Source: Rozella allomycis CSF55 (taxonomy: Eukaryota). From it: DNA of 64,000 nt. Each line of letters begins with the position of its first letter. Position 1 is the stretch's first letter. The notes under the pieces were generated by a model. It was not told the DNA's origin. It was given only the letters and a program-made list of their open reading frames with translations, and searched no databases. The translations under genes were made by a program, and so were the position numbers. Below are positions 47,862 through 50,214 of the stretch, piece after piece. The stretch spans positions 79,341 through 143,340 of the forward strand of contig KE561047.1 in the NCBI GenBank assembly GCA_000442015.1, read 5' to 3'.

Positions 47862-50214
47862 ATGGGAGATATCCCAGCACATAAAGTAAGTGTTTGAAGA
47901 TAATGGAATTGAGATTTTGTCGCAGCTAACATGTGATTTAGTGTCAACTTTTCAGCAAATAGACCCTTTGTATGCGTATCAGCAGCAGTACAATCCGAAG
48001 CGTGTGTTAACGAAACCGTCGAAGCCTGCAAAAAATAATGGATATGATAATGAAAATTCAGATTATATTCTTTATGTGAATGACGTGTTGGGAGATGAGG
48101 AGGGCAAAAGGTATGAGGGTGAATTGTAATTAAGCTAGGTAATGGGGCTTGATTATGCGAGAAAGATATTTAATAATGGATACGCTAGGACAAGGTACCT
48201 TTGGACAAGTAGTGAAGGCACAAAATTTGAAAACTAAAGAATTTGTGGCTGTCAAGGTCATTAAGAATAGCAAGGCGTATTTTAATCAAAGTATGATGGA
48301 AGTCACATTATTGGAGATGGTAATATTGTTCAAATATTAATAAGGAATAGATTAATAATAAACATGATGTTAATGATCAGTTCCATATAACGAGACTAAA
48401 GGATACATTTATTTTTCGAAAACATTTATGTATTGTTTCAGAATTGATGAGCATTAATTTATACGAGTTGTTGAAGCAAAACCACTTCAAAGGACTTTCT
48501 CTTAGATTGATTAGAGTGTTTATGAATCAGTTGCTGGAAGCGTTAAGTTTACTTCATGAAATAAAGATTATACATGCAGATTTAAAGCCAGAAAATATTT
48601 TGTTGAAAGAGTAAAATATATAATGAAATTTAAGAAAGTTTGGACAGCCCAAATATAAAGTTGATAGATTTTGGATCTGCGTGCCATGAGCATAACACAC
48701 CCTATACTTACATCCAATCTAGATTTTATAGATCGCCGGAAGTTTTGCTTGGATTACCGTAATTTGATAAAATAGGAAAGACTAGATATACCTCATCGAT
48801 TGACATGTGGAGTTTGGGTTGTATAGCAGCTGAATTATTTCTGGGGATACCAATATTTCCAGGCAGTTCAGAATTTAATCAAATTACAAGGATAGTGAAC
48901 ATGATGGGGTAAAATAGATGAATGTGTTTAAAAAGAATGCCGCCAAATCACATGTTAGAAAATGGAAAAAATACAAATAAATTTTTCAGCAAATCTACAA
49001 ATGCACAACAAATGTATTCTTTGAAAACATTAGAGGCTTATTCAAGGGTAATAAAAATAGACTTTAAATGAAAGGAATTCAAAAAGGATGAAAAGCCATC
49101 AAAGAGATACTTTCAAGGAGAAACGTTGCAAGAAGTGATGATGTCTTATCCAGTTAGAAAGAAGGCGACAACGATAGAAGTGGAAAAGGAAATTGAAACA
49201 AGGAAAAGTTTTATAGATTTTGTTTCTGGATGTTTAAAACTAAATCCACTGGAAAGATGGACTCCAATTCAAGCAAAGAAACATCCGTTTATTCTTAATC
49301 TTCCATTCAACGGTCCATTCGATCCAAATAGACTTAATTATCAATCGCAATTTTTAGATGACCAAATTTTGTATAGAAGAAATAGATCAAACACGCTTGG
49401 ACACATTCAAGTTCCTTCCCATCTATTAAAAGTCCCTGTGGAAGCAACGTTGCCTTCAACTACCTACCATGCTAATCAAAGACTTCAATACCAAGAGACA
49501 GCCTATCAATCTATTCAAGATCAATCAGATAAATCTCCTGCGTTTTCTCAAAGACGAAGATCTTCTGTTATGATGCAAAACGTTCAGAATCCTCCTTCCA
49601 CTTCATATCTACCTGTTCAAGATCCTCCTCCTGTTTCTCAAACTCTTCAAGCTAATCTCACTTACAAGTTTCCTTTGATGCAGAATGAAGCTCCTCAAAT
49701 CAATATAATGGATTCTCAACAATCTCAACAACAGCCACAATCATCTATTCCGCCTCAGTTCATGAGTCAAAGACTTCAAACTTATCTTCAACAACGACGA
49801 GTTTCAAATCCACCGCATCTATTCACTCAACAGCATCAAGCGGCATCGTCTAATCAACCTCAAATGTTCATTCAGTCAAACTTGAATTCTCACCCTCAAC
49901 TTAATCAAACATCCATCAGCTCTTCAAAGTCCACAGATTCAACATCATTTCTGAATCCTATTCCTGAAATTCAAGTTTCAAATGAAGATGGTATGCCAAA
50001 AAGTAAAAGTATGGAACAATTTCAGAACTCTCGATTACCGCCTGTTTCGCGTCGAAGATCAAGTGTACCATCTATTCCTATCGCAAATATCAATTTAAAC
50101 GCCTCAAGCTCAAAACCTCCTCCAATTTTTGGAAAAAGAAATTCAAATACAGATCAATCACAAAATCAGCCTTCTCCGAACAATAATCAGAATACCACCA
50201 ATAATAATAAATAA
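47862..50214 (+). CDS. YAK1: DYRK-family kinase Yak1
   Basis: [59 protein letters not shown]-rich tail. Confidence 0.93.

Follow-up and report, generated by a model that had tools for sequence, protein, structure and literature searches.

A 55-nt gap in the YAK1 gene of Rozella allomycis (positions 48111–48165 of the window, by which we mean the whole 64,000-nt stretch of DNA analyzed) is made of two GT..AG units that abut with no exon between them. Unit A (48111–48138, plus strand, 28 nt, GTATGAGGGTGAATTGTAATTAAGCTAG, GTATGA...CTAG) and unit B (48139–48165, plus strand, 27 nt, GTAATGGGGCTTGATTATGCGAGAAAG, GTAATG...AAAG) touch between 48138 and 48139, and the AG/GT at their contact (48137–48140, plus strand) forms a zero-length exon and a candidate ratchet point. 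This structure is genuine and non-random. We read the gap as a composite of two complete minimal spliceosomal introns whose likeliest fate, held with slightly better than even confidence, would be removal by two successive splicing reactions; an anatomy of two tiny abutting introns suggests two-step excision and does not prove it. The preliminary description of this DNA had proposed back-to-back introns and candidate recursive splicing. The anatomical part of that proposal is now supported by the scores of the individual units, by inner sites that are improbable by chance and by a second pair within the same 64 kb, while for the recursive part we infer both the use of the inner sites in vivo and the order of removal.

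Anatomy of the YAK1 pair

The gap interrupts a gene of eight exons (47862–50214, plus strand; exons 47862–47885, 47914–48110, 48166–48319, 48351–48610, 48639–48758, 48786–48908, 48936–49047 and 49075–50214) that encodes a 709-aa kinase of the YAK1/DYRK family. With all 55 nt removed, the spliced model matches a 'kinase-like protein [Rozella allomycis CSF55]' (P0002) at every one of 709 aa, and the exon just before the gap, taken by itself, is 100% identical to a protein recorded under this species name. Family membership is evident from a Pfam Pkinase domain spanning residues 77–403 (E 1.2e-54) together with an N-terminal DYILYVND block that is common to named Yak1 proteins and invariant in all 16 aligned sequences (Rozella and 15 Yak1-type proteins), and the best protein matches of the product are themselves named Yak1 or CMGC/DYRK/YAK. 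Housekeeping neighbors in the window include genes for a chitin synthase (51169–54313), a glutamine synthetase (20091–22455, minus strand) and a succinate dehydrogenase flavoprotein (22871–24808).

When only unit A is spliced out in silico, the frame closes directly after GKR (AGG TAA); when only unit B is spliced out, it closes after GKRYEGEL; and removal of both units restores GKR/YLIMD. These results bear out the earlier claim that excising a single unit leaves an in-frame stop and that excising both recovers the Yak1 motif, and the coordinates, the sequence and the meeting of a 28-nt and a 27-nt GT-AG unit at AG/GT proved to be as first described. Removal of the entire 55 nt is also backed by the match of the model to P0002 and by 14 of 15 orthologues that run without a gap across GKR/YLIMD. 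Because the orthologues are ungapped at the junction, a hidden micro-exon between the units was ruled out, the one exception (P0087) being a deletion that spans the junction. We also rejected an alternative 43-nt splice (48119–48161), which keeps the frame and adds four residues (YEER): its donor is GTG, as against GTA in 59 of 59 short introns of the window, and the insertion is absent from the orthologues. Recent tandem duplication is unsupported, since the two units are dissimilar, aligning to each other with a score of 1.0, where 1711 unrelated intron pairs average 3.36.

Splice sites were scored with donor and acceptor weight matrices derived from the 59 window introns, and 1611 other GT..AG segments of 26–30 nt served as decoys. 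Window introns reach a mean of 12.7 bits under leave-one-out scoring (sd 3.2) and decoys a mean of −0.5. On this scale, unit A scores 15.3 bits for donor plus acceptor, better than 44 of the 59 window introns and a level attained by 4 of 1611 decoys, and unit B scores 11.0 bits, better than 16 of the 59 and attained by 35 of 1611 decoys. The two sites that face each other across the contact at 48138 and 48139 score 8.5 bits (inner acceptor) and 4.8 bits (inner donor). An ordinary single intron of this species would fall within the species length range and carry one donor and one acceptor; the YAK1 element is 55 nt long and holds a high-scoring central acceptor–donor pair.

A second pair and the intron background of the window

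A scan of both window strands for abutting units that both score well, counted at a threshold of at least 10.5 bits per unit, returned two places only, the YAK1 site and 28903–28956 on the minus strand. Windows simulated with a second-order Markov model (150 in all) held a mean of 0.093 pairs at this threshold, and none of the 150 held two or more, against the two observed. The second element is part of a gene that encodes a mitochondrial-type ribosomal protein L19 (28201–29071, minus strand; exons 29071–28957, 28902–28750 and 28721–28201) and is composed of a 28-nt unit A (28929–28956, minus strand, GTAATTCAGCTCACAAAAGTTAAAATAG; donor 6.6 and acceptor 10.0 bits) and a 26-nt unit B (28903–28928, minus strand, GTAATTCAATGGTACAATAATAAAAG; donor 5.4 and acceptor 5.4 bits) that abut at AG/GT between 28929 and 28928. 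In YAK1 and L19 alike, the annotated intron contains a 3′ splice site that runs straight into a 5′ splice site, and it is long for the species, at 54–55 nt compared with 26–31 nt in 59 of 59 short introns.

The L19 model lacking all 54 nt is identical to P0125 (262 aa) by script check, and its first 248 residues equal P0122 when compared by eye; both proteins have an N-terminus that requires removal of the whole 54 nt. Pfam Ribosomal_L19 spans residues 85–167 of the model, and exon 2, which encodes part of the L19 domain region, has no in-frame ATG, so an upstream exon is needed. An alternative model exists in which translation starts at 28971, unit A is coding and only the 26-nt unit is removed; this model is less likely because unit A scores 16.6 bits as an intron. 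The two L19 units begin with the same 8 nt, GTAATTCA, a match seen in 0.76% of unrelated intron pairs, and they align to one another with a score of 8.0, a level that 10% of pairs attain, so that duplication is no more than hinted at.

The introns that surround these pairs are uniformly small. Our gene finder predicted 59 introns in the 24–32-nt class, all of which begin with GTA and measure 26–31 nt (14 of 26 nt, 22 of 27 nt, 12 of 28 nt, 7 of 29 nt, 3 of 30 nt and 1 of 31 nt); this catalogue comes from a finder of our own that was trained on one 64-kb window and that erred elsewhere in the window. The peak at 27 nt agrees with the initial description of introns of about 27 nt. We found no sharp branch-point motif in the window introns, which display mild enrichment of TGAAT and TTTAA only. 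In published accounts, two putative R. allomycis introns in an S23 ribosomal protein gene are short, at about 30 nt (PMC6349667), and the lowest intron median in a fungal set that includes R. allomycis is given as 29 bp (PMC8042348).

Within the 64 kb covered by our gene finder, the YAK1 and L19 tandems are the only confirmed introns longer than 31 nt, and no confirmed intron of 32–53 nt was found in the window. Rerunning the finder with its length penalty lifted for 32–90 nt recovered the full YAK1 gene with its 55-nt gap and turned up no additional long intron that was convincing. Such tandems escape gene finders trained on introns of 27 nt, and the present finder truncated both genes. The public model P0123, of a MULE transposase-like gene, uses a 63-nt intron (44659–44721) with well-scoring sites and no central AG/GT; there is a stop inside the stretch, which could equally be the end of the gene. 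If real, this intron would mean that there is no strict upper size limit. The MULE transposase-like gene itself occupies 42875–44900 (plus strand), its main open frame matches two more proteins of R. allomycis at 92% and 79% identity, and the public model of one of those two proteins uses 63-nt introns, by annotation only.

Several other candidates for long introns were rejected. The interval 56254–56379 reflects a frame break at an N within a duplicated stretch; 3416–3450 is in frame, encodes GILVPGGFG when read by hand and is taken as coding; 55207–55321 has a tRNA-like sequence inside; 31347–31541 resembles the end of a kinase open reading frame in hand translation, with a Pfam kinase domain in the open reading frame just upstream and with two genes split there by the relaxed run; and in P0123, 43222–43412 is made up of coding sequence and an intron of 28 nt. 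Further long-intron candidates of the gene finder (46187–46391, 16207–16322, 59980–60194, 38919–38989 and 6575–6662) stand outside the confirmed set. The N at 56384 lies within a stretch that is repeated on both sides (56340–56400), so that the peptide GDAEL is read twice, and what looks like an assembly flaw at this position breaks the frame of an ATR-like kinase gene. Genes for tRNA-Asn and tRNA-Ser are located at 40586–40659 (minus strand) and 63783–63865 (plus strand), and a third tRNA-like sequence at about 55270–55345, seen by eye, contains an N and was not called by ARAGORN. The window also harbors a Ty3/gypsy-type retrotransposon (6633–11424, minus strand) with two long open frames and with capsid, aspartyl protease, reverse transcriptase, RNase H, integrase and chromo domains.

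Candidate routes of removal

Excision of A then B, of B then A, or of both units in one step gives an identical mRNA. In the stepwise route that we favor, the spliceosome that handles introns of about 25–31 nt in this genome would take out the two units successively. The upstream unit A would probably leave first, and its loss would recreate a stronger 5′ splice site, AAG/GTAATG, for the second reaction: once unit A is removed in silico, the donor of unit B rises from 4.8 to 7.6 bits in its new context, AAG/GTAATGGGG, and the corresponding L19 donor rises from 5.4 to 7.3 bits in the context ACG/GTAATTCAA, so that, judged by sequence, a 5′ splice site appears to be regenerated in both genes. 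The final mRNA would match that from one-step removal, and either half-spliced form would carry a premature stop. Stepwise removal is favored because the range of intron lengths is narrow (26–31 nt in 59 of 59), because high-quality inner sites occur in both YAK1 and L19, because both downstream donors gain strength after upstream removal, and because intron definition predicts a pairing of the first donor with the acceptor at the preferred distance. It is disfavored by the good outer sites, from which a single step would give the same mRNA, by single introns of 44–56 nt that are removed in one piece at this site in other fungi, by the annotated 63-nt intron at 44659–44721, and by a predicted YAK1 hairpin that would pair the likely branch regions.

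One-step removal, in which the donor at 48111 pairs with the branch and acceptor of unit B to release a 55-nt lariat and the inner AG/GT is a relic used rarely or never, is possible but in our view doubtful; such a relic could remain, for example, where a new intron had arisen alongside an earlier one. In favor of a single step, the outer sites of the YAK1 element (donor 6.8 bits, acceptor 6.3 bits) together reach 13.1 bits, above 27 of the 59 window introns, the orthologous introns of 44–56 nt that occupy this position are ordinary single introns that lack a central AGGT, and nearby annotation includes a 63-nt intron devoid of inner sites. However, unused inner sites should decay, and both confirmed double-length introns keep high-scoring ones at a chance of 0.06–0.24% per intron. 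Under intron definition, moreover, donor 48111 should choose the nearest acceptor, which here lies at the preferred distance of 28 nt, and the gap in confirmed intron lengths between 32 and 53 nt likewise argues against a spliceosome that spans the double unit in one reaction.

It is improbable that the YAK1 gap is an ordinary long intron with an AGGT that falls near its middle without biological meaning. We ran 100,000 trials in which the outer ends of the 55-mer were fixed and its interior was randomized, and a central AG/GT with both halves of 26–30 nt arose in 1.2% of sequences of typical intron composition and in 4.5% of sequences of the element's own composition; the thousands of introns in a genome would include some of this kind by chance. 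Once site quality is counted, however, inner sites as good as those observed in YAK1 arose in only 0.24% (typical intron composition) or 0.09% (own composition) of the 55-mers, and inner sites of the quality observed in the L19 54-mer in 0.06–0.14% of random interiors. The quality of the inner sites is non-random. Coincidence is also at odds with the presence of another case in this window, against an expectation of 0.093, and with the fact that this pair and the YAK1 pair alone make up the confirmed window introns above 31 nt.

Still less probable is a structure-assisted single step, in which a hairpin predicted at 48126–48156 (plus strand; 11 bp, arms 48126–48136 and 48146–48156, with AG/GU inside the 9-nt loop at 48137–48145) would loop out 31 nt and leave 24 nt that, with the stem, mimic an intron of about 27 nt. 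Shortening of introns by structure has been reported for yeast introns. The YAK1 hairpin has a minimum free energy of −10.0 kcal/mol, compared with a mean of −5.9 (sd 1.7) for shuffled sequences (z −2.39; 3 of 200 shuffles as stable), which is weak evidence. The same stem would pair, and so sequester, candidate branch regions of both units (TTGAT and TTAAG), and the 54-nt L19 element has no comparable fold (−0.3 kcal/mol, z +0.89). An Rfam search around the YAK1 and L19 sites gave no match at E up to 1.

An assembly or annotation artefact is the least credible reading: the window does contain 15 single N positions, of which the N at 56384 broke a frame in its duplicated stretch and gave false introns, but no N lies near 48111–48165 or 28903–28956, the YAK1 units are not copies of one another, P0002 and the L19 protein are each recorded under two NCBI accessions with the same junction in both, and the YAK1 junction is fixed by orthologue alignment.

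Age of the YAK1 site and relation to known splicing systems

Metagenome contigs scanned with P0002 yielded 80 loci with Yak1 relatives, of which 64 span the junction unbroken, 15 are interrupted at or beside it and 1 is without the region. Three loci from environmental fungi (L041, L042 and L058) align ungapped and have introns that match the Rozella pair in codon and phase, with lengths of 44, 55 and 56 nt, and a central AGGT is absent from all three introns. On this comparison the YAK1 intron position is old and common to other fungi, where it is occupied by one intron of roughly the combined length of the Rozella pair. At 12 other loci, a phase-2 intron lies one or two codons off and the proteins have extra residues there, so their positional homology is only approximate. 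No intron of about 27 nt was found among the metagenome Yak1 loci, where the gaps measure 44–125 nt in all 41 of the 80 loci that show any; thus these 41 loci contain no close relative with tiny introns. Our unproven inference is that inner sites and a central AG/GT arose in an ancestral intron of about 55 nt in place of shrinkage; acquisition of an intron alongside an older one is an equally admissible origin of the YAK1 pair.

Uniformly tiny introns are also found in Paramecium, in Stentor and in chlorarachniophyte nucleomorphs, which resemble Rozella in their very narrow intron lengths and in the premature stops that arise from retained introns; double-length tandem introns are not known to us from any of these systems. 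In Drosophila, recursive splicing at zero-nucleotide exons is established (bioRxiv 10.1101/006163). The Rozella pairs resemble the ratchet points described for Drosophila and vertebrates in having an AG/GT inside an annotated intron, a 5′ splice site that would be recreated and an mRNA that would keep no trace of the event (bioRxiv 10.1101/006163). They differ in that the animal introns extend over many kb and are shown by RNA, whereas the Rozella elements are 54–55 nt long, consist of parts the size of minimal introns and are recognized by sequence.

Fungal zero-length-exon cases include SPNCRNA.445 of S. pombe, where spliceosome profiling revealed recursive splicing in a 336-nt intron (bioRxiv 10.1101/226894), and BOT1 of C. 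neoformans, where the same approach revealed a 375-nt intron split recursively into 210 and 165 nt (bioRxiv 10.1101/224170). These introns of 336 and 375 nt, as given in the two reports, mean that recursive splicing at zero-length exons is documented in fungi and not confined to the very long animal introns named when the YAK1 pair was first described. The yeast cases, as presented there, are demonstrated by spliceosome profiling with junctions and branches, in contrast to the Rozella pairs; their parts measure 165–210 nt compared with 26–28 nt in Rozella, and they amount to single or double cases per genome compared with two in 64 kb.

The ascomycete stwintrons, including the 'sensu lato' forms of Lipomyces with abutting donors, are complex intervening sequences removed by consecutive standard splicing, as is proposed for the Rozella pairs, and their proposed origin is likewise from new splice sites inside an existing intron (PMC7138796). 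In the account of Lipomyces, one-step and two-step removal coexist in L. starkeyi, and an old intron can acquire new inner sites (PMC7138796). Under the definition given in that account (PMC7138796), the inner intron of a stwintron interrupts the donor, branch or acceptor of the outer one, whereas the Rozella units are complete and merely abut; both are contiguous, removal of either leaves an intact intron, and the pairs are thus not stwintrons sensu stricto.

Our literature search for tandem or abutting tiny introns, and for recursive, twin or nested splicing of ultra-short introns, found nothing comparable, and within the reach of that search the earlier statement that recursive splicing had not been established at this scale stands. 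On present comparison, the Rozella pair is a plausible small-scale variant of known recursive splicing. New here are the steps of 26–28 nt, the total of 54–55 nt, the fit of each step to the fixed intron size of the species and the occurrence of two cases in 64 kb.

We also advance, tentatively and as a rather unlikely whole, a broader proposal in which the Rozella spliceosome would have a limit of about 31 nt, longer intervening sequences would be chains of minimal introns removed sequentially, and some ancestral introns of about 55 nt, such as that in YAK1, would have survived shrinkage by gaining a central AG/GT ('intron splitting') in place of losing bases, with tandems forming a regular class at a few percent of intron sites. 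Should the inner sites be in use, the Rozella pairs would represent the smallest recursive splicing known, with steps of 26–28 nt, and would provide a natural test of whether a spliceosome for tiny introns measures length in the manner of a ruler and is unable to span the double. They would also show that, as the size optimum shrinks, introns can adapt in a second way, through splitting in place of deletion.
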